NCBI GenBank assembly: GCA_963662965.1 | Contig: OY759970.1 | Span: 3,072,524 to 3,136,523, forward strand | DNA length: 64,000 nucleotides | From: Vicinamibacterales bacterium | GTDB lineage: Bacteria; Acidobacteriota; Vicinamibacteria; Vicinamibacterales; UBA8438 | Direction of reading: 5' to 3' | In this document: in pieces, positions 23,021-34,144 of the stretch | Layout of the letters: each line of letters opens with the position of its first letter | Numbering within the stretch: position 1 is the first letter of the stretch | Notes under the pieces: generated by a model | The model's database searches: none | Told to the model about the DNA's origin: nothing | Seen by the model: only the letters and a program-made list of their open reading frames with translations | Made by a program: the position numbers and the translations under genes

Positions 23021-23062
23021 TAATGATAGAGTATCTCCTTTGCAGGTGTTACTCTATCATTA
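23021..23062 (+). promoter_or_regulatory. 13-bp perfect inverted repeat (16-nt spacer) whose right arm ends on the first base of the transposase ATG
   Basis: TAATGATAGAGTA (23021-23033) and TACTCTATCATTA (23050-23062) are exact reverse complements. The ATG is at 23062-23064. Confidence 0.6.
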
Positions 23063-23847
23063 TGCGAACCGAACACTATCGCGCGCGGGACCTCACCACG
23101 TTGTTGCGGAAGCAGAAGATCGCCACGATGACCGAGCTGAAAGACGTCCTGGGGAGCGCAGCGGACATCACGATCTTCCGGAAGCTGGCGGAGCTGTCCT
23201 ATCAGACCAGCTACTCCCACCGCGGGCGATATTACACGTTGGCCGATATCCCCCAGTACGATGCGTGGGGCCTGTGGTCGTATCGCTCGGTGTGGTTTTC
23301 GCGGCGCGGGACATTGCTGGCCACCGCGGAAGCGCTGGTCCAGGAGGCCGACGCCGGATTTTTCGTGGCCGAGCTCGAGGGGGTCCTCAACGTGGAGGTG
23401 AAGGGGGCGTTGCTGAGGCTGGTCCGTCAGCAGAAGCTGGCGCGTGCGTCCTTCGCCGGGCGCTATCTGTACTGTTCCCCCGATACCGCCACGAGGGACG
23501 CTCAGCTCACCGCGCGCCGGGTCCGTGACGCGGCGACCCCACTCGGGGGGCGGCTGCCGCACGTCGATGTCCTCCCCGATGAGCTCAAGGCATCGATTGT
23601 GCTGTTTTTCAGCCTGCTCGATGAGCAACAGCGACGCCTGTACGCCGGCCTGGAGTCGCTCAAGATGGGCCACGGAGGCGACCAGGCGATCGCCGACCTG
23701 CTGGGGCTGGACGCGGGGACCGTGGCCCGCGGGCGGCACCACCTCCTGGACCGCGATGTGACTGTCGAGCGTGTCCGCCGGGCTGGCGCCGGACGCCGAC
23801 CGGTGGAAAAAAAACGCCAGCGGTCATCGCGCGCATCGACGAGCTGA
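23062..23847 (+). CDS. ISAzo13-like transposase, N-terminal part (frame 1)
   Basis: ORF 23023..23847 with the start at MRTEHY (23062). It ends ...GRRPVEKKRQRSSRASTS just after an A8 tract (23807-23814). Confidence 0.8.
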   Translation: MRTEHYRARDLTTLLRKQKIATMTELKDVLGSAADITIFRKLAELSYQTSYSHRGRYYTLADIPQYDAWGLWSYRSVWFSRRGTLLATAEALVQEADAGFFVAELEGVLNVEVKGALLRLVRQQKLARASFAGRYLYCSPDTATRDAQLTARRVRDAATPLGGRLPHVDVLPDELKASIVLFFSLLDEQQRRLYAGLESLKMGHGGDQAIADLLGLDAGTVARGRHHLLDRDVTVERVRRAGAGRRPVEKKRQRSSRASTS

Positions 23848-24761
23848 TGACGCACGAGACGGCGGGCGACCCCATGTCCGGGTTGAAATGGACCCGAAGG
23901 ACCACCGAGAAGATCGCCGCCGAGCTGCAGTCGCTTGGCATCAGCGTGGGCCCACGCACCGTGGCCAGGCTGCTCACGCAGTTGGGGTTCTCCTTGCGCG
24001 TCAATCAGAAGAAACGCTCCACTGGCTCGCCGGCACGGCGGAATGAGCAATTCGAGCAAATCGCCTCGCTTCGGGAGCGTTTCGTCACTGACGCGGCGCC
24101 GATCATCAGCGTGGATACCAAGAAGAAAGAACTGGTTGGCCACTTCAAGAACGCGGGCGTCGCCTGGAATCGTGCGCCCGTGGTTGTCAACGACCACGAC
24201 TTCCGGTCCGAGGCCGAGGGGATCGCGATTCCCTACGGCATCTATGACCTGCAGGCCAATCGCGGCACGATGTTCGTCGGCACGACCTACGACACCCCGT
24301 CGTTCGCCGTGGACGCCATCGAGCAGTGGTGGCGCACCGAAGGCGCGACGCGCTACCCCGGGTCCCGCGAACTGGCGATCCTCGCCGATGGCGGAGGAAG
24401 CAACGGCGCCAGATGCCGCGCTTGGAAGTTCGGGCTCCAGCGCAGCCTCTGCGACCGACATGGCCTGTCGATCACCGTCGCTCACTACCCGCCGGGAGCC
24501 TCGAAGTGGAACCCGATCGAGCATCGACTGTTCAGCGAGGTGAGCAAGAACTGGGCTGGCAAGCCGCTCGACAGCTATGACACGATTCTCAACTACCTCC
24601 GAACGACGCGCACCTCAACCGGACTCCGCGTTCGTGCTCACCTGGTTCGCCGATCCTATGTGAAGGGCATCAAGATCGCGGCGGCAGACATGAACACGCT
24701 GGCTCTGGAGGAGCTCGAACCCCTGCCCGCCTGGAACTACACGCTCCAACCCCGCTGTTGA
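23847..24761 (+). CDS. ISAzo13-like transposase, DDE catalytic part (-1 frame relative to the N-terminal part)
   Basis: ORF track 304 aa. ...GDPMSGLKWT...ISVDTKKKELVG.F.N.G..W...DHDF...IPYGIYD...ILADGGGSN...WK..LQ...ITV.HYPPG.SKWNPIEHRLF matches the Rhodopirellula/ISAzo13 transposase pattern. The homologous reading actually starts at the A8 tract (..EKKTPAVIARIDELMTHETAGDP). Confidence 0.85.
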   Translation: MTHETAGDPMSGLKWTRRTTEKIAAELQSLGISVGPRTVARLLTQLGFSLRVNQKKRSTGSPARRNEQFEQIASLRERFVTDAAPIISVDTKKKELVGHFKNAGVAWNRAPVVVNDHDFRSEAEGIAIPYGIYDLQANRGTMFVGTTYDTPSFAVDAIEQWWRTEGATRYPGSRELAILADGGGSNGARCRAWKFGLQRSLCDRHGLSITVAHYPPGASKWNPIEHRLFSEVSKNWAGKPLDSYDTILNYLRTTRTSTGLRVRAHLVRRSYVKGIKIAAADMNTLALEELEPLPAWNYTLQPRC

Positions 24762-25968
24762 AAATGGGGAGTTATTCCTGCGCGGACACTTACTGCCAGC
24801 CGAACCGTTTCAGAGATGCGGCCACCGCCGCGACCGCGCTCGTCGGCCGTCCCGTGTTCCTCACGGGCTGGCCGGGGACACCCGGCCGGCCATCACTGCC
24901 GCCTGAGACGTAACGGAAAGCCCGTGTCACCCGGAGGGCCGTAGCGCAAGCGTAGGAGCCGCGTCGCGGCTTGACGTGGGCTGTGGGCTGTGAGTGCAGG
25001 CTATCCGGGCTTGTAGCACGGCGTGCAGCGTCGTGAGTGCGCCTCTGCCGCAGATCAGCTCCGCGCCGACGGCTCGCCCGCTGGACCCGCGCCCGCCCAT
25101 GCCCGTGGGTGCCAACCCTGGACCTCGCGCGGATGATCGTCCACCCGAGGGGGATCCTCAGCCCCGACGGGCGCGGCGATCGCGCGCTGGTGACACGATG
25201 ACCAGCAGCTCGGCCCAATTATGTAGAGGATGTGTCGGCGGTCCGCGACTCACTGCGGCGCACCGGAAGCATTTAGGCCGCTCGTCACGGCCTGCGCGGA
25301 TCGCTTTGAGTGGCAGGGGGCGCCGCGAACTGAGGATTGAGCGCCGGGATAGTGCAGTTTTCAGGTCAGGCGGTCGGCCGGTTTACCGGAAGGCCGGCCG
25401 TCTGACCCCCCCTCCTCTGTCGAGGTCGGGGTCGTCGGAAGGTCGCACCACCGGTTTTATTGGTCGAATCGCGTGTTGATGCAACGGTTGGCCCCACCTA
25501 CTTTGTCGCCTTGCGTATCGCTTTGGCCGCCGCCGCCGGCACGACGATCCAACCGCGCTTGCCGTCCCGGTCCACGGCCTCTGTGTCCAGAATCACGACG
25601 CCCGCCGCGTCCGCCGACTTGTGCCAGGCGTCATCTATCCCGCCCGGCCTATGCGTCGATTCCGGCCCGAAGGCGATCCGCCGCCTGTCGCGTGCCGAGA
25701 GGAGCAGCGGACAGCCACCGCCCGGGCCGAGCGGGACGGAAGGATGGGGACCGGCCGGACCGCGTGGAGGGTCTCATTGAGAGTTTTCTTCAAAGCCGCG
25801 CGCGCAGCCAGGACATCGGCCTGTAGTTCTCACGCCGATCGCGCATCGCCGGGAGCCATGCTCGCCCATTTCGAGACGCTGAGCACGACGGCGACAATCA
25901 GCCAACTGGAACTGCTCACGCGGCGCCGACGTGTCACGCCGCGGGCGCCCAGGACCTATCATCCGCAT

Positions 25969-27972
25969 ATGAGTAACGGCGACCTGCACTGGATCGCGAC
26001 CTACATCTGGGGGATCGCCGACGACGTCCTCCGAGACCTCTACGTCCGCGGCAAGTACCGGGACGTCATCCTGCCGATGACGGTGCTGCGCCGGCTGGAC
26101 GCGGTGCTGGTGGACAGCAAGCCGAACGTGCTCGAGATGAAGGCGGTGCTCGACCAGACCGGCGTCGTCGCGCAGGACGCGGCCCTCCGGCAGGCGGCGG
26201 GTCAGGCCTTCTACAACACCTCGAAGTTCACCCTGCGCGACCTCCGGGCCCGCGCGAGCCGGCAGCAGCTCAGGGCCGACTTCGAGGCCTACCTCGACGG
26301 CTTCTCGCCCAACGTACAGGACATTCTCGAGAACTTCGAGTTCCGTAACCAGATCCCGCGGCTCTCGAAGGCCGACGCCCTGGGTACGCTCATTGAGAAG
26401 ATTACCTCGCCGGACGTCAACCTCAGCCCAGCCCCGGTAAAGCACGCTGACGACTCGGTCCGGTATCCCGGCCTCGACAACCACGGGATGGGCTCAATCT
26501 TCGAGGAGTTGGTCCGCCGCTTCAACGAGGAGAACAACGAGGAGGCGGGCGAGCACTGGACGCCGCGCGACGCCGTGCGGCTGATGGCGACGCTCGTCTT
26601 CCTGCCCGTCGCCGACGAGCTCAAGTCTGGCACCTACCTGCTCTACGACGGTGCCTGCGGCACCGGCGGGATGCTCACCGTCGCCGAGGAGACGCTGGGC
26701 CAGCTTGCGGCCGAGCGCGGCCAGGACGTTTCCACGCACTTGTTCGGCCAGGAGATCAACGCCGAGACCTACGCCATCTGCACGGCCGACCTGCTGCTGA
26801 AGGGCGAGGGCGAGGCGGCCGACAACATCGTCGGCGGCCCGGAGCACTCCACCCTCGCCAACGACGCCTTCCCGTCCCGCGAGTTCGACTTCATGCTCTC
26901 CAACCCGCCCTACGGCAAGAGCTGGAAGACCGACCTGGAGCGCATGGGCGGTAAGAAGGCTATGCGCGACCCGCGCTTCGTCATCGAGCACGCCGGCGAT
27001 CCCGAGTACTCCCTGGTCACCCGCTCCAGCGACGGTCAGATGCTCTTCCTCGCCAACAAGCTCTCGAAGATGAAGCAGGACACGCCGCTCGGCAGCCGCA
27101 TCGCCGAGGTGCACAACGGCAGCTCGCTGTTCACCGGCGACGCCGGCCAGGGCGAGAGCAACATCCGCCGCTGGATCATCGAGAACGACTGGCTGGAGGC
27201 GATCGTCGCCCTCCCACTCAATATGTTCTACAACACCGGCATCGCCACCTACATTTGGGTGCTTACCAACCGCAAGCCCGAGCACCGCAAGGGCAGGGTG
27301 CAGTTGATCGACGCCACGAAGTGGTACCGGCCGCTCCGCAAGAACCTCGGCAAGAAGAACTGCGAACTGGGCGAGGACGACATCGCCTGCATCTGCGACA
27401 CCTTCCTCGCCTTCGAAGAGACCGAGCAGAGCAAGATTTTAGACAACGCCGCGTTCGGCTACTGGAAGGTAACCGTCGACCGGCCGCTACGCATCGCAGG
27501 TGCCGACCCGAACCGCGCCTACAAGGCGGCGGAGATCAAGGCGCTGAAGGAGAACGGCAAACGCAGCGAGGATGCGCCACCGGTCCTCCGGAAGATCCAC
27601 AAGCGCGGCACGGAGGCCGACCCGCTGCGCGGCCTGTTCGCGGCCAACGTCAACGGCCGGCCGGCTGTCGTGGAGTACGAGCCGGATACCGACCTGCGCG
27701 ACACCGAGGAGATCCCGCTGCAGGAAGACGGCGGCATCGAGGCGTTCCTGCGGCGCGAGGTCCTGCCGTACGCGGCCGACGCCTGGTACCAGGCGGATAG
27801 TGTGAAGGTCGGCTACGAGATCAGCTTCACGCGCTACTTCTACACGCCGAAGCCGATGCGGACGCTGGCAGAGATTCGGGCGGATATTCTGGAGCTGGAG
27901 CTGGAGCAGGAGACGGAGGGGCTGCTGGCCGAGATCCTCGGCGGCGACGAACAGCGGGAGACGACTGCATGA
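25969..27972 (+). CDS. hsdM: Type I restriction-modification system, DNA methyltransferase subunit M
   Basis: ORF 25621..27972, with the start at ATG 25969 (MSNGDLHWIATYIWG...). Motif I is YDGACGTGGML and motif IV is SNPPYGKSW. It has a long C-terminal extension. Confidence 0.93.
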   Translation: MSNGDLHWIATYIWGIADDVLRDLYVRGKYRDVILPMTVLRRLDAVLVDSKPNVLEMKAVLDQTGVVAQDAALRQAAGQAFYNTSKFTLRDLRARASRQQLRADFEAYLDGFSPNVQDILENFEFRNQIPRLSKADALGTLIEKITSPDVNLSPAPVKHADDSVRYPGLDNHGMGSIFEELVRRFNEENNEEAGEHWTPRDAVRLMATLVFLPVADELKSGTYLLYDGACGTGGMLTVAEETLGQLAAERGQDVSTHLFGQEINAETYAICTADLLLKGEGEAADNIVGGPEHSTLANDAFPSREFDFMLSNPPYGKSWKTDLERMGGKKAMRDPRFVIEHAGDPEYSLVTRSSDGQMLFLANKLSKMKQDTPLGSRIAEVHNGSSLFTGDAGQGESNIRRWIIENDWLEAIVALPLNMFYNTGIATYIWVLTNRKPEHRKGRVQLIDATKWYRPLRKNLGKKNCELGEDDIACICDTFLAFEETEQSKILDNAAFGYWKVTVDRPLRIAGADPNRAYKAAEIKALKENGKRSEDAPPVLRKIHKRGTEADPLRGLFAANVNGRPAVVEYEPDTDLRDTEEIPLQEDGGIEAFLRREVLPYAADAWYQADSVKVGYEISFTRYFYTPKPMRTLAEIRADILELELEQETEGLLAEILGGDEQRETTA

Positions 27973-28181
27973 CTGAGATCATCTTCGAAATCACCGAAGA
28001 CGAAATGGACGGCGGGTACTCGGCAAACGCCCTCGGGTACGGCATTCACACCCAGGGTGAGTCTGTCGAGGAGATCCGCAGCAACGTCAAGGAGGCCGTC
28101 GACTGCTACTTCGACGACACCATGCCGCGACCGAAGTTGATCCGGTTGCACTTCGTGCGGGACGAGGTTCTCGTGGCATGA
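27969..28181 (+). CDS. hicB: HicB-like antitoxin (small, no DNA-binding extension)
   Basis: ORF track 70 aa. MTEIIFEITEDEMDGGYSANALGYGIHTQGESVEEIRSNVKEAVDCYF... is the UPF0150/HicB-type fold signature. It has ATGA overlaps with hsdM upstream and hicA downstream. Confidence 0.7.
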   Translation: MTEIIFEITEDEMDGGYSANALGYGIHTQGESVEEIRSNVKEAVDCYFDDTMPRPKLIRLHFVRDEVLVA

Positions 28182-28420
28182 AGTTGCCCCGCAACGTGAG
28201 CGGCGCGACGCTGCAAGCGGCGCTTCGACGCCTGGGGTACGACACCGTGCGACAGCGAGGCTCCCACGTGCGGATCACGACGCAGATCAACGGTGAACAT
28301 CATGAGGTGATCCCGCTGCACACTCCGATCAGGACGAAGACGCTGTCGAGCATCCTGAAGAGCGTTGCCAGGCACCACGAAATAACCGTCGAAGAGCTTC
28401 TCCGTGAACTCGACCTGTGA
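28178..28420 (+). CDS. hicA: HicA-family mRNA interferase toxin
   Basis: ORF track 80 aa. ...LRRLGYDTVRQRGSHVRIT... carries the YcfA/HicA GSH motif. Confidence 0.8.
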   Translation: MKLPRNVSGATLQAALRRLGYDTVRQRGSHVRITTQINGEHHEVIPLHTPIRTKTLSSILKSVARHHEITVEELLRELDL

Positions 28421-28436
28421 ACTCGGGGAGCGAGCG

Positions 28437-29477
28437 ATGAAGGACGCGCCGAAGGTCTATCTCGCCAGGGCTGGTCGACATGGCGACGACGAGGATTACG
28501 CGCTTGAGCACAACCTCGCCGTGATCGGCTTCCTGGAGGTGCCGTCTCTGGCAGGCGCACAAGACTACGACGCGATGGTCCAGCTCGTGCAAGACGCGTG
28601 GCCCGATGGGCAGCCTCGCGCCCTCGGGAACTTTGCCAGACAACTGTGGGCCTTCGCGGGTGCGATGCAGGAGGGCGACCTCGTCGTCTTGCCACGCAAG
28701 ATCACGGCGCAGATCGCTATTGGCCGGGTCACGGGGCCGTATCGATACGCCGAGGTGAACACGACCTGGCGGCACACACGGCCCGTGGAGTGGATGCGGC
28801 CGGACATCCCCCGCGCCACGTTCGAACAGGACCTACTCTATTCGTTCGGCGCGTTCATGACGGTCTGCAACATCTCCCGGAATGATGCCGCCCGGCGTGT
28901 CGCAGCGGTCCTCGAAGGCAAGCCTGATCCTGGCCTCTCTGTCCCCACAAAGGCGCCGGTGCCGACGGATATCGAAACCCCAGAGGTACCAGACCTGACG
29001 CAGCTGGCGCACGACCAAATTGTGGCGCGGATCCAGTCACGGTTTACCGGGCATGCCCTGGCGCGGCTGGTGGCTGCGGTGCTGCAAGCCGACGGGTGGG
29101 AGACGAAGATCTCGCCGCCAGGGGCTGACGGGGGCGTAGACATTCTCGCGGGACGTGGCTCACTGGGGTTGGACGCGCCACGTCTCTGCGTGCAGGTCAA
29201 GTCGCAGAACAGTCCTTCCGACGTCACGGTGTACCGCACCTTGCAGGGGACGATGCAGACGTTCAAGGCGGAGCAGGGGTTGCTCGTCTGTTGGGGCGGG
29301 GTGAACAAAGTGGTTCTGGCAGAGTCGAGGCAGGGCCACTTCATGGTGCGTCTGTGGGACAGCCGTGACCTTATGAGAGCCATCTACCGAACTTACGAAC
29401 GCCTCCCGGCGGAGATCCAGGCGGAATTACCCCTGAAGCAAGTGTGGATACTTGTCGCCGAGGAGTCTTCGGAATGA
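28437..29477 (+). CDS. Mrr-like (type IV-type) restriction endonuclease with an N-terminal ~150-aa domain of unknown specificity
   Basis: ORF 28404..29477, with ATG 28437 after GGGGAG. The C-terminal Mrr_cat-like PD-(D/E)xK is ...GADGGVDILAGRG...LCVQVKSQ. The N-terminal domain shows ...GDLVVLPRKITAQIAIGRVTGPYRY...HTRPVEWM... Confidence 0.8.
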   Translation: MKDAPKVYLARAGRHGDDEDYALEHNLAVIGFLEVPSLAGAQDYDAMVQLVQDAWPDGQPRALGNFARQLWAFAGAMQEGDLVVLPRKITAQIAIGRVTGPYRYAEVNTTWRHTRPVEWMRPDIPRATFEQDLLYSFGAFMTVCNISRNDAARRVAAVLEGKPDPGLSVPTKAPVPTDIETPEVPDLTQLAHDQIVARIQSRFTGHALARLVAAVLQADGWETKISPPGADGGVDILAGRGSLGLDAPRLCVQVKSQNSPSDVTVYRTLQGTMQTFKAEQGLLVCWGGVNKVVLAESRQGHFMVRLWDSRDLMRAIYRTYERLPAEIQAELPLKQVWILVAEESSE

Positions 29478-30916
29478 GCGCCAACCTCAAGCCCTATCCC
29501 GCGATGAAGGACTCCGGGGTGCCGTGGCTGGGGGAGGTGCCGACGTATTGGGAGGTGGTGAGGTTGCGCAACTCCGAAATGCGGGTTAGCAACGTCGACA
29601 AGCACGCGAAGGACGATGAACAGCCGGTTCGCCTCTGCAACTATGTCGATGTCTACAAGAATGATCGCATCAGGTCCGGGATGGCTTTCATGCGTGCGAC
29701 TGCGACTACGGACGAGATCGAACGGTTCCGGCTGCAATCCGGCGATGTGCTGATCACAAAGGACTCTGAGGCATGGAACGATATTGGTGTTCCAGCACTT
29801 GTTGAGGATACCCAAGACGACACCGTCAGCGGCTACCACTTGGCGTTGCTTCGCCCATTCCCTGAGCGCGTCGATGGTGGGTATCTATTTCGCGCACTAC
29901 AGAGCCCAGCCGTCGCGTATCAGTTCCATGTCGAGGCGAACGGTGTCACGAGGTATGGGCTCTCACACAGCGCTATTAGGTCGGTGTGGCTGCCCCTCCC
30001 TCCCCTCTCCGAACAAGCCGCCATCGTCCGCTTCCTCGACCACGCCGACCGGCGCATCCGGCGCTACCTCCGCGCCCAGCAGCAGCTGGTTATGCTGCTG
30101 GAGGAGCAGAAGCAGGCCATCATCCACCAGGCCATCACGGGACAGATCGACGTCCGCACCGGCCGGCCCTTTCCTGCCTACAAGCCCTCTGGCGTGGAAT
30201 GGTTGGGGGAGGTGCCGGAGCGTTGGCAGGTGTGCAGAAGCAAACGGATGTTCAGGCCACGAAGGGAACTTGCTCGACCTAACGACATTCAGCTCTCAGC
30301 TACTCAAGCCTACGGTGTGATATCGCAGCGGCGCTACGAGGAGAGGGTTGGGAGAAAGGTGGTCAGGATTCTACGCCACCTTGAGAAGCGACGCCATGTG
30401 GAAGTTGATGACTTCGTAATGAGCATGCGAAGTTTTCAAGGGGGATTGGAAAGGGCATGGGAAAGTGGATGCATCCGGTCATCGTACATTGTCCTGAGGC
30501 CTGCGACGAAGCTGGTCGTGGGGTACTTCGGTCACCTGTTCAAGTCAGCTGGCTATATCAATGCCCTACGGTCAACTGCGAATTTCATTCGTGATGGGCA
30601 AGACCTCAATTTCGAAAACTACTGTCGCGTTGACCTTCCACTTCCAGCGATAGAAGAACAGCAGCGTATCGCACAGTTTCTTGAGCAGGCCACGACGGCA
30701 ATCCGCCTAGCGGTGGAGCGATACCGCGGGCAAGTTGATCTCATCCGCGAATACCGCACCCGCCTGATCGCCGACGTGGTCACCGGGAAGCTCGACGTGC
30801 GGGCGGCGGCGGCACGACTCCCGGATGAGGTCGAGGAACTGGAGCCGCTCGACGAGGCGGATGCCTTGATCGACGGCGAGGACGAGCCCACCGACGCCCT
30901 CGCCACCGCCCCCTAG
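29474..30916 (+). CDS. hsdS: Type I restriction-modification system, specificity subunit S (two target-recognition domains)
   Basis: ORF 29444..30916, with ATG 29474 in an ATGA overlap with the Mrr-like gene. Conserved spacer helices are LPPLSEQAAIVRFLD...LLEEQKQAIIHQAITG and LPAIEEQQRIAQFLE...REYRTRLIADVVTGKLDV. Confidence 0.9.
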   Translation: MSANLKPYPAMKDSGVPWLGEVPTYWEVVRLRNSEMRVSNVDKHAKDDEQPVRLCNYVDVYKNDRIRSGMAFMRATATTDEIERFRLQSGDVLITKDSEAWNDIGVPALVEDTQDDTVSGYHLALLRPFPERVDGGYLFRALQSPAVAYQFHVEANGVTRYGLSHSAIRSVWLPLPPLSEQAAIVRFLDHADRRIRRYLRAQQQLVMLLEEQKQAIIHQAITGQIDVRTGRPFPAYKPSGVEWLGEVPERWQVCRSKRMFRPRRELARPNDIQLSATQAYGVISQRRYEERVGRKVVRILRHLEKRRHVEVDDFVMSMRSFQGGLERAWESGCIRSSYIVLRPATKLVVGYFGHLFKSAGYINALRSTANFIRDGQDLNFENYCRVDLPLPAIEEQQRIAQFLEQATTAIRLAVERYRGQVDLIREYRTRLIADVVTGKLDVRAAAARLPDEVEELEPLDEADALIDGEDEPTDALATAP

Positions 30917-30927
30917 GAGGCTGCGGT

Positions 30928-33927
30928 GTGACGACCGACACCAGCGAACGTGGCCTCGAACGCCTGATCTGCACGGCGCTGACCGGCCATCCCTGCGATC
31001 CGCCGCAAGAGCGCAGGGCAGCGGAGGCCCGCCCCGGCTACGGCCGCGCGGGCTGGAGCGGCGGCAATCCCCACGACTACGACCGCGAGTTCTGCGTCGA
31101 TCGGGTCCAGCTCGCGGCATTCCTGAAGTCCACCCAGCCGGACGCCGCCGAATCGCTGGCGCTCGACGAGGACGGGCAGGCGCGGCGCAAGTTCCTCGCC
31201 CGGCTGCAGGGGGAGATCGCCAAGCGCGGCACCATCGACGTGCTGCGCCACGGCGTCAGACACGGCGCGCACGACCTGGACCTGTTCTACGGCACGCCGT
31301 CACCCGGGAACGTGCAGGCGCAGCAGCGCTTCGCGCAGAACCGCTTCACCGTCGTCCGGCAGCTCCGCTACAGCCGCGACGAGACGCAGCGAGCGCTCGA
31401 CATCGGGCTCTTCATCAACGGCCTGCCGGTCTTCACGTTCGAGCTGAAGAACAGCCTCACCAAGCAGACCGTTAACGATGCGGTGTGGCAGTACCAGAAG
31501 GACCGCAACCCCCGCGAGAAGCTGTTCGAGTTCGGCCGCTGCGTGGCCCACTTCGCGGTGGACGAGAGCGACGTGCGCTTCTGCACCCACCTCAAGGGGA
31601 AGGCGTCCTGGTTCCTGCCGTTCAACCGGGGCTGGAACGACGGCGCCGGCAATCCGCCCAATCCGAGCGGCATCAAGACCGACTACCTGTGGCGAGACGT
31701 GCTCACTCGCGAGAGCCTGACCGACATCCTGGAGAACTACGCCCAGGTGGTGGAGGCGAAGGACGAGAAGACCGGCAAGAAAAAGCGGACGCAGATTTGG
31801 CCGCGCTACCAACAGCTCGACGTGGTGCGCCGGCTGCTGGCCGACGCCGCGACGCGCGGGGCGGGGCGGCGCTACCTGATCCAGCACTCGGCGGGCAGCG
31901 GGAAGAGCAACTCCATCGCCTGGCTGGCCCACCAACTGATCGGACTCGCGAAGGACGACGCTTCGACATTCGACTCGATCATCGTGGTCACCGACCGGCG
32001 CATCCTCGACCGGCAGATCCGCGACACCATCAAGCAGTACGCCCAGGTCGGCGCGACGGTGGGGCACGCGGAGCGCGCCGGAGACCTGCGTCGGTTCATC
32101 GAGGCCGGCAAGAAGATCATCATCTCGACGGTTCAGAAGTTCCCCTTCATCCTCGACGAGATCGGCAACGAGCAGCGCGGCCAGCGCTTTGCCATCATCA
32201 TCGACGAGGCCCACTCCAGCCAAGGTGGGCGCACCTCGGCGTCCATTTCGGCCGCGCTGGGGACAGCCGGTGAAGAGGCCGAGGAGGAGACCACCGAGGA
32301 TCACATCAACCGCCTGATGGAGTCGCGCAGGCTGCTCCCGAACGCCAGCTACTTCGCGTTCACCGCCACCCCGAAGAACAAGACGCTGGAGATCTTCGGC
32401 GAGCCGGACCCGCAGCCAGGCGGCGCGGTCAGGCACCACGCCTTCCACAGCTACACCATGAAGCAGGCAATCCAGGAGGGGTTCATCCTGGACGTGCTGG
32501 CGCACTACACCCCGGTGGCCAGCTACTACCGGCTTGCCAAGACGGTGGAGGACGACCCGGAGTTCGACGTCAAGAAGGCGCAGAAGAAGCTCCGTCGCTA
32601 CGTCGAGGGCCACGACCACGCGATCCGCCTCAAGGCCGAGATCATGGTCGACCACTTCCACGAGCAGGTCATCGCGAAGAACAAGATCGGCGGCGAGGCG
32701 CGGGCGATGGTGGTCACCAACGGCATCGAGCGCGCCCTCCAGTACTTCCATGCCATCCGCGACTACCTGCAGGAGCGAAAGAGCCAGTACCAGGCAATCG
32801 TGGCCTTCTCCGGCGAGCCCGAGTTCGGCGGCGAGAAGGTGACCGAGACGTCGCTGAACGGCTTTCCGTCCGGCCAGATCGCCGACAAGATCCAGCAGGA
32901 TCCATACCGCTTCCTGATCTGCGCCGACAAGTTCCAGACCGGCTACGACGAGCCGCTACTGCACACAATGTACGTGGACAAGACGCTGTCCGGCATCAAG
33001 GCGGTGCAGACCCTGTCGCGCCTCAACCGGGCGCATCCGAAGAAGCACGATGTCTTCGTGCTCGACTTCCTCAACGACGCCGACACCATCCGCGACGCCT
33101 TCACCGACTACTACCGCGCGACGATCCTGGCCGGCGAGACCGACCCCGACAAGCTCCACGACCTGCAGACGGACCTGGATGCCGCCCAGGTCTACTCACC
33201 CGAGCAGATCGACGACTTCGTCGAGCGCTACCTCGACGGGGCCGAGCGCGACCAACTGGATCCGATCCTCGACGCCTGCGTGGCGGTCTATCGGAACGAC
33301 CTGGACGAGGACGGGCAGGTGGACTTCAAGGGCAAGGCGAAGGCCTTCGTCCGGACCTACGGCTTCCTGTCGTGCGTCCTGCCGTACACCTACGCCCCGT
33401 GGGAGAAGCGCTCCATCTTCCTGAACTTCCTCATCTCGAAGCTGCCGGCGCCCGAGGAGGAGGACCTCTCCAAGGGCATCCTCGACGCCATCGACATGGA
33501 CAGCTATCGGGTCGAGAAGCGCGCGGTGCAGCAGATCCTGCTGCCCGACGAGAATGCCGAGATCACACCCGTGCCACCGAGCGGCGGCGGCCACGTGCCA
33601 GAGCCGGAGCTGGAGCGGCTCTCGAGCATCTTGAGAGAGTTCAACGACCTGTTCGGTGCCATCGCGTGGCAGGACACCGACCGTGTGAAGGAGATGATCA
33701 CGGAGACCATTCCCTTTCGAGTCGCCCAGGACGCTGCGTTCAAGAACGCTCGCCAGAACTCCGATCAGGACAATGCTCGCATTGAGCACGGTAAGGTGCT
33801 CACTCGTGTCATGACGGCGCTAATCAAGGATGATGCCGAGCTGTTCAAGCAATTCATGGACAACGACAGCTTCAAGCGTTGGATGACTGAGACCGTATTC
33901 ACCTTGGCCTGTAAGCAGGCCAGTTGA
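30928..33927 (+). CDS. hsdR: Type I restriction enzyme, R subunit (SF2 helicase-nuclease)
   Basis: ORF track 999 aa. GTG 30928 lies 8 nt after AGGAGG. Walker A is HSAGSGKSNS and the DEAH box is IIIDEAHSSQ. It is followed by a 12-4-12 palindrome. Confidence 0.93.
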   Translation: MTTDTSERGLERLICTALTGHPCDPPQERRAAEARPGYGRAGWSGGNPHDYDREFCVDRVQLAAFLKSTQPDAAESLALDEDGQARRKFLARLQGEIAKRGTIDVLRHGVRHGAHDLDLFYGTPSPGNVQAQQRFAQNRFTVVRQLRYSRDETQRALDIGLFINGLPVFTFELKNSLTKQTVNDAVWQYQKDRNPREKLFEFGRCVAHFAVDESDVRFCTHLKGKASWFLPFNRGWNDGAGNPPNPSGIKTDYLWRDVLTRESLTDILENYAQVVEAKDEKTGKKKRTQIWPRYQQLDVVRRLLADAATRGAGRRYLIQHSAGSGKSNSIAWLAHQLIGLAKDDASTFDSIIVVTDRRILDRQIRDTIKQYAQVGATVGHAERAGDLRRFIEAGKKIIISTVQKFPFILDEIGNEQRGQRFAIIIDEAHSSQGGRTSASISAALGTAGEEAEEETTEDHINRLMESRRLLPNASYFAFTATPKNKTLEIFGEPDPQPGGAVRHHAFHSYTMKQAIQEGFILDVLAHYTPVASYYRLAKTVEDDPEFDVKKAQKKLRRYVEGHDHAIRLKAEIMVDHFHEQVIAKNKIGGEARAMVVTNGIERALQYFHAIRDYLQERKSQYQAIVAFSGEPEFGGEKVTETSLNGFPSGQIADKIQQDPYRFLICADKFQTGYDEPLLHTMYVDKTLSGIKAVQTLSRLNRAHPKKHDVFVLDFLNDADTIRDAFTDYYRATILAGETDPDKLHDLQTDLDAAQVYSPEQIDDFVERYLDGAERDQLDPILDACVAVYRNDLDEDGQVDFKGKAKAFVRTYGFLSCVLPYTYAPWEKRSIFLNFLISKLPAPEEEDLSKGILDAIDMDSYRVEKRAVQQILLPDENAEITPVPPSGGGHVPEPELERLSSILREFNDLFGAIAWQDTDRVKEMITETIPFRVAQDAAFKNARQNSDQDNARIEHGKVLTRVMTALIKDDAELFKQFMDNDSFKRWMTETVFTLACKQAS

Positions 33928-34007
33928 CGGGCTGGCTGTGAGGAACGGACCGATGGCCGCAGTCTGGCCGACCGGGTGCGACACCGCCCATTGGGAGGGC
34001 GACCCAC

Positions 34008-34082
34008 GCGTAGCACGTCGCGCTGCAGGTCCTGCGACCGGGAGCCGTCCGCTTTTGAGACGCGGGCGTAGTCGATCAGCAT
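34008..34082 (-). pseudogene. N-terminal 25-codon remnant of a serine recombinase (resolvase/invertase)
   Basis: The minus-strand translation MLIDYARVSKADGSRSQDLQRDVLR matches the resolvase catalytic N-terminus (YARVS...Q...Q). Similarity ends abruptly near 34005. Confidence 0.5.
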
Positions 34083-34109
34083 GTGTCGCAAACGGTCGTT
34101 TGCGACACA
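34082..34109. repeat. perfect 12-4-12 palindrome TGTGTCGCAAAC-GGTC-GTTTGCGACACA
   Basis: Read directly: the arms are exact reverse complements. It lies between the convergent hsdR and M48 genes and abuts the ATG of the resolvase remnant. Confidence 0.85.
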
Positions 34110-34144
34110 GTAATCCGTTCCTGACGTCGGAGAAGCTCAGACAA

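Follow-up and report, generated by a model that had tools for sequence, protein, structure and literature searches.

The 64,000-nt window analysed here (Vicinamibacterales bacterium, Acidobacteriota; assembly GCA_963662965.1, contig OY759970.1, positions 3,072,524 to 3,136,523 of the forward strand) contains a Type I restriction–modification (R-M) operon in which three further genes lie between hsdM and hsdS. The gene order, all on one strand, is hsdM, a hicB-like gene, hicA, a gene for a nuclease with DUF8426 and Mrr_cat domains (hereafter mrr, with product Mrr), hsdS and hsdR, and all six genes are intact (Table 1). An original prediction, made from the sequence alone, had described this order together with three ATGA overlaps, two short gaps and an AGGAGG motif, and each of these details was confirmed from the open reading frames (ORFs) and the sequence. 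The 4-nt stop/start overlaps are at 27969-27972, 28178-28181 and 29474-29477, a gap of 16 nt (containing GGGGAG) separates hicA from mrr, a gap of 11 nt separates hsdS from hsdR, and AGGAGG at 30915-20 overlaps the hsdS stop codon. From this operon-like packing, co-transcription of the six genes is plausible. A scan of the + strand inside the cluster with an Escherichia coli-type consensus detected no sigma-70-like promoter or terminator-like site in this genome of 65% G+C, and Rfam gave no match within or adjoining the operon.

Judged by their domains, hsdM, hsdS and hsdR form an intact Type I enzyme gene set. HsdM carries the Pfam domains HsdM_N (E value 1.3e-19) and N6_Mtase (2.2e-48) and matches the PADLOC model MTase_I (1.3e-235); its translation shows NPPYG and DGACGTGG motifs, and its start codon is backed by homologues. 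HsdS matches Methylase_S in Pfam (9.3e-11) and Specificity_I in PADLOC (1e-92 over aa 5-443), in keeping with the two target-recognition domains of a Type I specificity subunit, and is highly variable, with 25-61% identity to its relatives. HsdR has the Pfam domains HSDR_N, ResIII, SWI2_SNF2 and T1R_D3-like, and so combines an N-terminal PD-(D/E)xK nuclease with a superfamily 2 (SF2) motor. Its match to TIGR00348 (1.8e-59) is under the curated cut-off of that model, and its closest solved relative is the HsdR of EcoR124I (2e-13). Catalytic motifs are readable in all enzymes of the operon.

Table 1. Positions of the operon genes and flanking features in the window
Feature	Position	Strand	Basis or remark
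hsdM, Type I N6-adenine methyltransferase subunit, 667 aa	25969..27972	+	Pfam, PADLOC
HicB-like small protein, 70 aa, probable antitoxin	27969..28181	+	Sub-threshold library matches and hicA synteny
hicA, HicA-family mRNA-interferase toxin, 80 aa	28178..28420	+	Pfam, PHROG
16-nt spacer with GGGGAG	28421..28436	+	Alignment of window, L001 and L002
mrr, PDC-S02-family DUF8426+Mrr_cat nuclease, 346 aa	28437..29477	+	PADLOC, Pfam, AlphaFold/Foldseek
hsdS, specificity subunit, 480 aa	29474..30916	+	Pfam, PADLOC
hsdR, restriction/translocase subunit, 999 aa, GTG start	30928..33927	+	Pfam
DNA shared with L128, the closest intact relative; likely mobile unit	25791..34110	.	blastn
Perfect 13-bp palindrome TGTGTCGCAAACG/CGTTTGCGACACA	34082-34109		Inverted repeat; exact right end of L128 homology
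ArdC-like relic, 52 aa	25048-25203	+	79% identity to the middle of the L002 ArdC-like anti-restriction protein (ArdcN + zincin peptidase)
ISAzo13-family transposase	23023-24761	+	Left flank, position given together with the abutting 274-aa ORF; Pfam DDE_Tnp_ISAZ013, 1.9e-109

The inserted nuclease

The nuclease is a full-length member of the PADLOC family PDC-S02 (PDLC04815, 2.1e-132; aa 7-343 against positions 3-345 of the 346 in the model). Pfam places Mrr_cat at aa 202-315 (1.7e-18) and assigns the N-terminal domain, aa 1-160, to PF28530 (DUF8426). The original prediction had regarded the N-terminal ~150 aa as not nameable; the region does have a Pfam name, and the name is that of a domain of uncharacterised function. 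The nuclease family is large, with more than 4,100 close relatives and 3,465 representatives at 50% clustering, nearly all with the same ~345-aa architecture.

The structure of the nuclease was modelled with AlphaFold from a 103-sequence alignment; a single-sequence model had a predicted local distance difference test (pLDDT) score of 37 and was unusable. The alignment-based model was confident (pLDDT 93.6) and consisted of two domains, a mixed beta/alpha domain (residues 1-160) joined by a flexible linker to a Mrr-type PD-(D/E)xK nuclease (residues 187-330). Across the 103 sequences D231 is invariant and Q253-x-K255 nearly invariant, and the Mrr_cat domain thus has an intact catalytic motif (D231...Q253-x-K255), as a Type IV endonuclease would need. 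The best Foldseek matches in the PDB were MspJI (3e-7) and AspBHI (1.2e-6), over 322-396 aligned columns; matches to EcoT38I, AF1548 and RPB5 covered the nuclease domain only (~150 columns, E ~4e-4). Foldseek against viral structures matched the nuclease domain only, a PDB sequence search with the whole nuclease gave nothing significant, and a literature search on DUF8426 found nothing.

The partners of DUF8426 provided a second line of evidence. On a plasmid of Rhodococcus pyridinivorans (NZ_CP086070; locus L117, 4884-8217), DUF8426 heads a McrB-type AAA_5 ATPase that is followed by a McrC-family gene, and its presence in this McrB homologue was recognised by hhalign with 99.7% probability (E 9e-26). 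In McrBC systems, the N-terminal module of McrB occupies the position of the DNA-modification sensor. Exchange of DUF8426 between a Mrr nuclease and a McrB motor is therefore the behaviour expected of a reader module. Based on the structural match to MspJI and AspBHI and on the presence of DUF8426 on a McrB next to McrC, we predict that the nuclease is a modification-dependent, Type IV-like endonuclease; in structure and in gene context, DUF8426 looks like a reader of DNA modification. The same two observations support the original guess that this nuclease is modification-dependent.

The hicB-hicA pair

HicA matched the Pfam family HicA_toxin (PF07927; 6.5e-9, scoring 36.2 bits where the cut-off is 27) and a PHROG 'toxin' family (1.1e-5), and it contains an RGSH motif. 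The 70-aa product of the upstream gene was below threshold in Pfam for HicB_lk_antitox (0.067) and UPF0150 (0.14), reached 0.03 against a HicB-like PHROG family and an E value of 1 against the UPF0150-like PDB entry TTHA1756, and aligned with a bona fide HicB_lk protein at an hhalign probability of 45%. These weak HicB-type matches all cover one region, approximately residues 8-50. Nothing significant was returned by PDB sequence searches with HicB, a HicB profile or HicA. NCBIfam has no model for the three inserted genes (hicB-like, hicA and mrr) and PADLOC has none for HicA or HicB, and a literature search on hicA within hsd loci returned unrelated genome surveys only.

The family of the 70-aa protein has 1,758 relatives, which are misnamed '2-oxoisovalerate dehydrogenase' in some databases. 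Among 80 metagenome loci found through HicB (L033-L112), hicA was directly downstream of a family member in at least 58. We accept the 70-aa protein as the probable partner of HicA on the basis of its sequence family and position. Hidden Markov model (HMM) searches thus upheld the predicted identities of hsdM, hicA, the Mrr_cat nuclease, hsdS and hsdR, while the identity of HicB stood by its synteny with hicA and not by its sub-threshold HMM scores. Classical HicB proteins carry a ribbon-helix-helix (RHH) or helix-turn-helix (HTH) domain that binds DNA, for which 70 aa leaves no space. The protein is therefore too short to have the classical domain, and it consists of a beta-beta-beta-alpha-beta core alone.

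Passenger genes in related Type I loci

Related loci (numbered with the prefix L) were collected through the nuclease (L001-L026, with counts based on 22 full-length Mrr copies), through HicB (the 80 metagenome loci above) and through HsdM alone (eight further loci, in which HsdM is 88-96% identical to that of the window). In gene orders, M, S and R denote hsdM, hsdS and hsdR. An M-Mrr-S-R operon with tight junctions was found in 14 of the 22 full-length Mrr loci, in hosts from Acidobacteriota, Latescibacterota, Verrucomicrobiales, Planctomycetes, Syntrophales and Acidimicrobiia. Identity to the window among the M-Mrr-S-R loci was 72-94% for HsdM, 71-96% for HsdR and 64-92% for Mrr, but no more than 25-60% for HsdS. 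Relatives with ~40% identity in Mrr had the orders M-S-Mrr-x-x-R on a Salipiger plasmid and Mrr-R-x-S on a Methylomonas plasmid. Other copies of Mrr had no R-M system nearby (L008), were divergent from a different Type I system (L015), followed an unrelated hsdR (L016) or, truncated, adjoined a Type III system (L020).

The loci found through HicB were mostly free-standing hicB-hicA pairs, and only two of the 80, near-identical copies without Mrr, were embedded in a Type I locus. The order M-hicBA-S-R without Mrr was present in L032, L034 and L122, and L032, a further Type I locus, also carries a second pair (M-hicB-hicA-S-DarT-DarG-R). Among the eight loci chosen by HsdM, two had the layout of the window, intact in L128 (where the genes are spaced as in the window and are of near-identical size) and degraded in L121. 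Of the remainder, one had M-hicBA-S-DUF433-DUF5615-R, in three hsdM was followed by a HicB/HicA pair of a second type, one had a hicB relic at this position and one had an empty junction. In total, a HicB/HicA-type pair followed hsdM in 6/8 and Mrr was present in 2/8. In this lineage the junction between hsdS and hsdR carries passengers as well, including DarTG, HEPN/MNT, VapBC-type RHH/PIN, DUF433/DUF5615, SLFN-AlbA_2, DUF1828 and an M78 peptidase with DUF4411. Toxin–antitoxin (TA) pairs are thus commonplace at its gene junctions.

The complete six-gene layout was limited to a narrow clade, intact in the window, L001 and L128 and degraded in L121 and L023. The order that the original prediction had proposed to look for in other genomes therefore does recur. 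The block is present in related loci, and the scan showed neither a promoter-like nor a terminator-like site belonging to it, so a trivial one-off insertion does not account for it. The two parts of the block are separable: M-Mrr-S-R occurs without hicBA, M-hicBA-S-R occurs without Mrr, and both passengers occur outside Type I operons, which argues that the inserts are independent modules. By gene order and homology, this Type I lineage is a modular carrier, with Mrr and hicBA as two separable, recurrent passengers.

Two earlier views were revised in the course of the analysis. M-Mrr-S-R had been considered a fixed four-gene core of the lineage, a view that arose because the loci had been selected by Mrr, and it was dropped given the low frequency of Mrr in the HsdM-chosen loci. 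The idea that hicBA is a rare, very recent insertion was softened in light of the HicB/HicA-type pairs that follow hsdM in most of these loci.

Several other features of the related loci were recorded. In L007 (8909-9768), copies of a REP-associated tyrosine transposase (Y1_Tnp) and a degraded hicB-like ORF lie between hsdM and mrr. In L123 (7297-8004) and L125 (7249-8004), a gene with LexA_DNA_bind and Peptidase_S24 domains, absent in the window, overlaps the hsdM start by 4 nt and, from its domains, may encode an SOS-type regulator of the Type I lineage. The hsdM-hicBA-hsdS-DUF433-DUF5615-hsdR operon of L122 (599-17209) is accompanied by integrase and repressor-like genes and has BrxC fragments and a BREX-type methylase on both sides; it looks like an island inserted in a BREX locus. 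Finally, the Marinacidobacterales genome OZ240210 (L005, L024 and L025) has an intact M-Mrr-S-R operon and two truncated Mrr fragments by hsdS/hsdR genes, and these copies point to repeated operon turnover within one genome.

Origin of the six-gene layout and selection on its genes

The spacer between hicA and mrr retains a trace of how the layout may have arisen. In L001 this spacer measures 156 nt, of which ~125 nt correspond by alignment to the hsdM 3′ end in L002, a second operon of the same genome, which has no hicBA. Only the last ~17 nt of this hsdM-tail relic remain in the window, L023 and L128, including the mrr ribosome-binding site. In relatives without hicBA, the bases homologous to the 16-nt spacer are those with which hsdM ends, directly before the Mrr start. 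The window HsdM also differs from that of Mrr-carrying relatives without hicBA in the sequence type of its last ~130 aa: identity to the L002 HsdM is 92% over residues 1-500 and 71% over residues 540-667. The tail type of the window is shared by the HsdM of L122, L123 and L125 (88-91% identity).

Because a relic of the older hsdM tail persists in L001, the simplest reading, which the alignments show in part, is that the six-gene layout is a recombinant of the M-hicBA and M-Mrr-S-R types with a crossover in 3′ hsdM. An M-Mrr-S-R operon would first have recombined within hsdM with a donor that carried a different hsdM 3′ end and hicBA. The displaced hsdM tail would then have remained as a scar, as in L001, and the scar would later have been deleted. 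The original prediction had proposed an integrated multi-layer module, and in this respect it did not hold, as the six-gene combination appears to be a narrow-clade recombinant of independent modules and not a conserved machine.

The ratio of nonsynonymous to synonymous substitution rates (dN/dS) lay at 0.07-0.46 in hicB, hicA and mrr, close to the values of hsdM and hsdR. With dN/dS below 0.5 in hicB, hicA, mrr, hsdM and hsdR, all of these genes are being maintained, and the operon genes are under purifying selection.

Flanks and mobility

The homology with L128 begins shortly before hsdM and ends exactly at a perfect palindrome downstream of hsdR (Table 1). A resolvase-like 'MLIDYARVS' start on the - strand has the palindrome immediately upstream, and the 57-95 nt around the palindrome (34012-34110) are also present elsewhere in L121 and L128. 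The original prediction had placed a resolvase remnant here; the resemblance ('MLIDYARVS...') extends over ~27 aa at motif level, has no Pfam match and received no confirmation from HMM searches. On the left, the predicted insertion sequence (IS) was confirmed by an ISAzo13-family transposase. A 274-aa ORF that abuts this gene upstream has no Pfam match and may be its frameshifted N-terminal part. The 1.2 kb between the IS and the operon had been described as non-coding, but it holds the ArdC-like relic and is, judged by its sequence, decayed conjugative-element DNA. The operons of L001 and L002 have fragments of coupling proteins and a complete ArdC-like gene around them, and so resemble cargo of an integrative and conjugative element (ICE). 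The mobile context originally proposed was thus supported by the ICE-like setting of relatives and by the confinement of L128 homology to the operon and its immediate borders, and from these sequence comparisons mobile cargo is a fair description of the operon. Elsewhere in the window, an Rfam match to a group II intron (RF00029; 5290-5366, + strand, 46.8 bits, E 4.6e-6) suggests the presence of an intron.

Interpretation

We consider it likely that the locus is an operon-like Type I cluster of a horizontally mobile lineage, and that self-contained modules for defence or addiction dock at the junctions between its genes. The nuclease would be the first such passenger, an autonomous, single-polypeptide Type IV-like endonuclease in which DUF8426 reads a modified base. 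It would cut foreign-modified DNA and thereby extend protection to phages not stopped by the Type I enzyme, a division of labour that matches the hsd-mrr-mcrBC neighbourhood of E. coli K-12. Since the nuclease is combined with many HsdS specificities, it must tolerate the N6-methyladenine (m6A) made by Type I enzymes, and its target is probably not the cognate mark. The second passenger is the hicB-hicA pair. Its antitoxin has no DNA-binding domain, so hicBA is probably expressed by read-through transcription that starts at the hsd promoter, and the pair likely stabilises the island or aborts infection.

Several observations weigh against this reading or parts of it. The 4-nt overlaps are persistent and the position between hsdM and hsdS is frequent, and they could reflect a functional coupling that is underrated if the passengers are taken as independent. 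The promoter and terminator scan says little for this host because its consensus is of E. coli type and the genome has 65% G+C. The HicB homology of the 70-aa protein was under threshold in every library. For the reader role of DUF8426, the Foldseek TM-scores with MspJI and AspBHI were low when whole chains were compared (0.30-0.34), the domain had no significant sequence match to SRA, EVE or YTH, a single member of the nuclease family (1/103) matched EVE (E 0.022), and a DUF8426 profile search of PDB sequences returned nothing. In addition, in the one published assay of PDC-S02, a representative tested in E. coli B failed to protect against T7, T5 or T4, of which T4 carries glucosyl-hydroxymethylcytosine (bioRxiv 10.1101/2024.09.26.614923).

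Part of this evidence would also fit selfish hitch-hiking, with hicBA a mere addiction cassette, Mrr a mere neighbour, and both lodged at junctions that tolerate insertion and carried along with the mobile island, without a role in defence. Many unrelated TA pairs and a REP-associated transposase occur at the same junctions, degraded copies are frequent (L121, L023, L022, L020 and L123), the surroundings are rich in IS and ICE sequences, and the PDC-S02 phage assay was negative. However, hicB, hicA and mrr are under purifying selection, the catalytic motifs are kept across 103 diverse Mrr members, and the domain architecture is common to proven Type IV enzymes and a McrBC system. Moreover, embedded genes have repeatedly proved defensive when tested (Payne et al.; TgvAB). 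We therefore consider hitch-hiking without a defence role unlikely.

An alternative that assigns a function to the nesting itself is a guard of the PrrC kind, in which intact HsdMSR (or its translation) restrains Mrr, and possibly HicA, until a phage anti-restriction protein (Ocr, ArdA or Stp-like) releases them. This would be the integrated, layered system of the original prediction, with a new reader domain. In its favour, Mrr is repeatedly nested in Type I operons at differing junctions (24-97% identity), the stop/start overlaps suggest stoichiometric co-expression, and HicB, from its 70-aa length and what is known of the family, has no DNA-binding domain of its own. PrrC provides a precedent, and a negative assay of PDC-S02 alone would be expected if a Type I partner or trigger were needed. 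A PrrC-type effector should occur essentially only inside Type I operons, which is the case for neither Mrr nor hicBA. Intact Mrr is found without the operon of this lineage (L008, L015 and L016), hicBA is mostly free-standing (embedded in 2/80 metagenome loci), nearly the same Mrr (64-92%) is paired with very different HsdS (25-61%), and the six-gene layout is a recent recombinant. Because both passengers occur independently of this Type I lineage, the guard model is weakened and seems to us quite improbable.

A further possibility is that DUF8426-Mrr belongs to the Type I enzyme as an accessory subunit, and serves HsdR as an additional nuclease or processes DNA ends with it. This would fit the 4-nt overlaps that accompany its hsdM–hsdS position in many phyla and the joint fall of Mrr, HsdM and HsdR identities across loci, but complete hsdM/hsdS/hsdR sets of this same lineage lack Mrr in L122, L124, L125 and L126 (HsdM 88-90%), HsdR retains its own HSDR_N nuclease domain and Mrr occurs away from Type I loci, which makes this explanation highly implausible.

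The locus reveals no new principle of immunity. It is a clean, intact example of a Type I operon that carries other defence or addiction modules, and a traceable case of composite assembly by recombination within hsdM. The original finding was accurate as anatomy and overstated as novelty. What is new is modest, namely that DUF8426 is predicted to act as a reader and that the origin of the layout by recombination has been reconstructed. The most useful lead is DUF8426, an uncharacterised domain present in thousands of proteins and fused to a Mrr nuclease or a McrB motor; if the prediction is true, it adds a new reader domain to the tools for detecting modified DNA.

Comparison with known systems

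Passengers had originally been regarded as rare in Type I loci. This view is outdated, as a 'guilt-by-embedding' survey of BREX, DISARM and Type I loci has catalogued 17,432 non-redundant embedded genes (Payne et al. 2024, bioRxiv 10.1101/2024.01.29.577857). Nested defence genes in Type I operons are therefore common and already on record. The PDC families are drawn from such embedded genes (Payne et al. 2024, bioRxiv 10.1101/2024.01.29.577857), and the nuclease resembles the founders of PDC-S02 in its full-length match to the model and in its same-strand embedding in a Type I operon. PDC-S02 is a candidate family only. In the window, the nuclease differs in sharing the hsdM–hsdS interval with hicBA.

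The closest functional parallel in arrangement is TgvAB, a GmrSD-like Type IV system embedded in the VPI-2 Type I operon of Vibrio cholerae, for which complementarity with the Type I enzyme is reported, with modified DNA proposed as the target of the one and unmodified DNA as that of the other (PMC11411939). Both are modification-dependent nucleases, in our case by prediction, nested in a Type I operon. However, TgvAB consists of two proteins and belongs to the GmrSD family (DUF262/DUF1524), whereas the nuclease of the window combines DUF8426 and Mrr_cat in one polypeptide. EVE-nuclease fusions, predicted to be Type IV enzymes, also occur near Type I loci, and a similar complementarity has been argued for them (PMC7641849).

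In its structural plan the nuclease is most like MspJI and AspBHI, the best whole-chain matches, which combine an N-terminal beta-barrel reader with a C-terminal PD-(D/E)xK domain. It differs from them in the absence of detectable SRA-type sequence similarity, in its Mrr_cat-type catalytic motif (D...QxK) and in the low TM-scores given above. With E. coli Mrr, and the immigration control region of strain K-12 (hsdRMS-mrr-mcrBC), it shares Mrr_cat and genomic linkage to a Type I system. The divergent Mrr and Type I genes of L015 resemble the K-12 hsd-mrr neighbourhood. E. coli Mrr itself has a winged-helix Mrr_N domain instead of DUF8426, and its gene is a neighbour and is not nested.

PrrC, from the EcoprrI hsd operon, is likewise an effector carried as a passenger within a Type I operon, but it is an ABC-ATPase/RNase silenced by the R-M complex and belongs to a protein family unrelated to the passengers here. 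The hicB-hicA pair is like the HicAB type II TA systems in having a HicA domain above threshold and a small upstream partner that overlaps it by 4 nt, and the antitoxin-first 'HicBA' order is known in other systems. In contrast to these systems, the partner in the window is a minimal, 70-aa HicB/UPF0150-like protein without an RHH or HTH domain.

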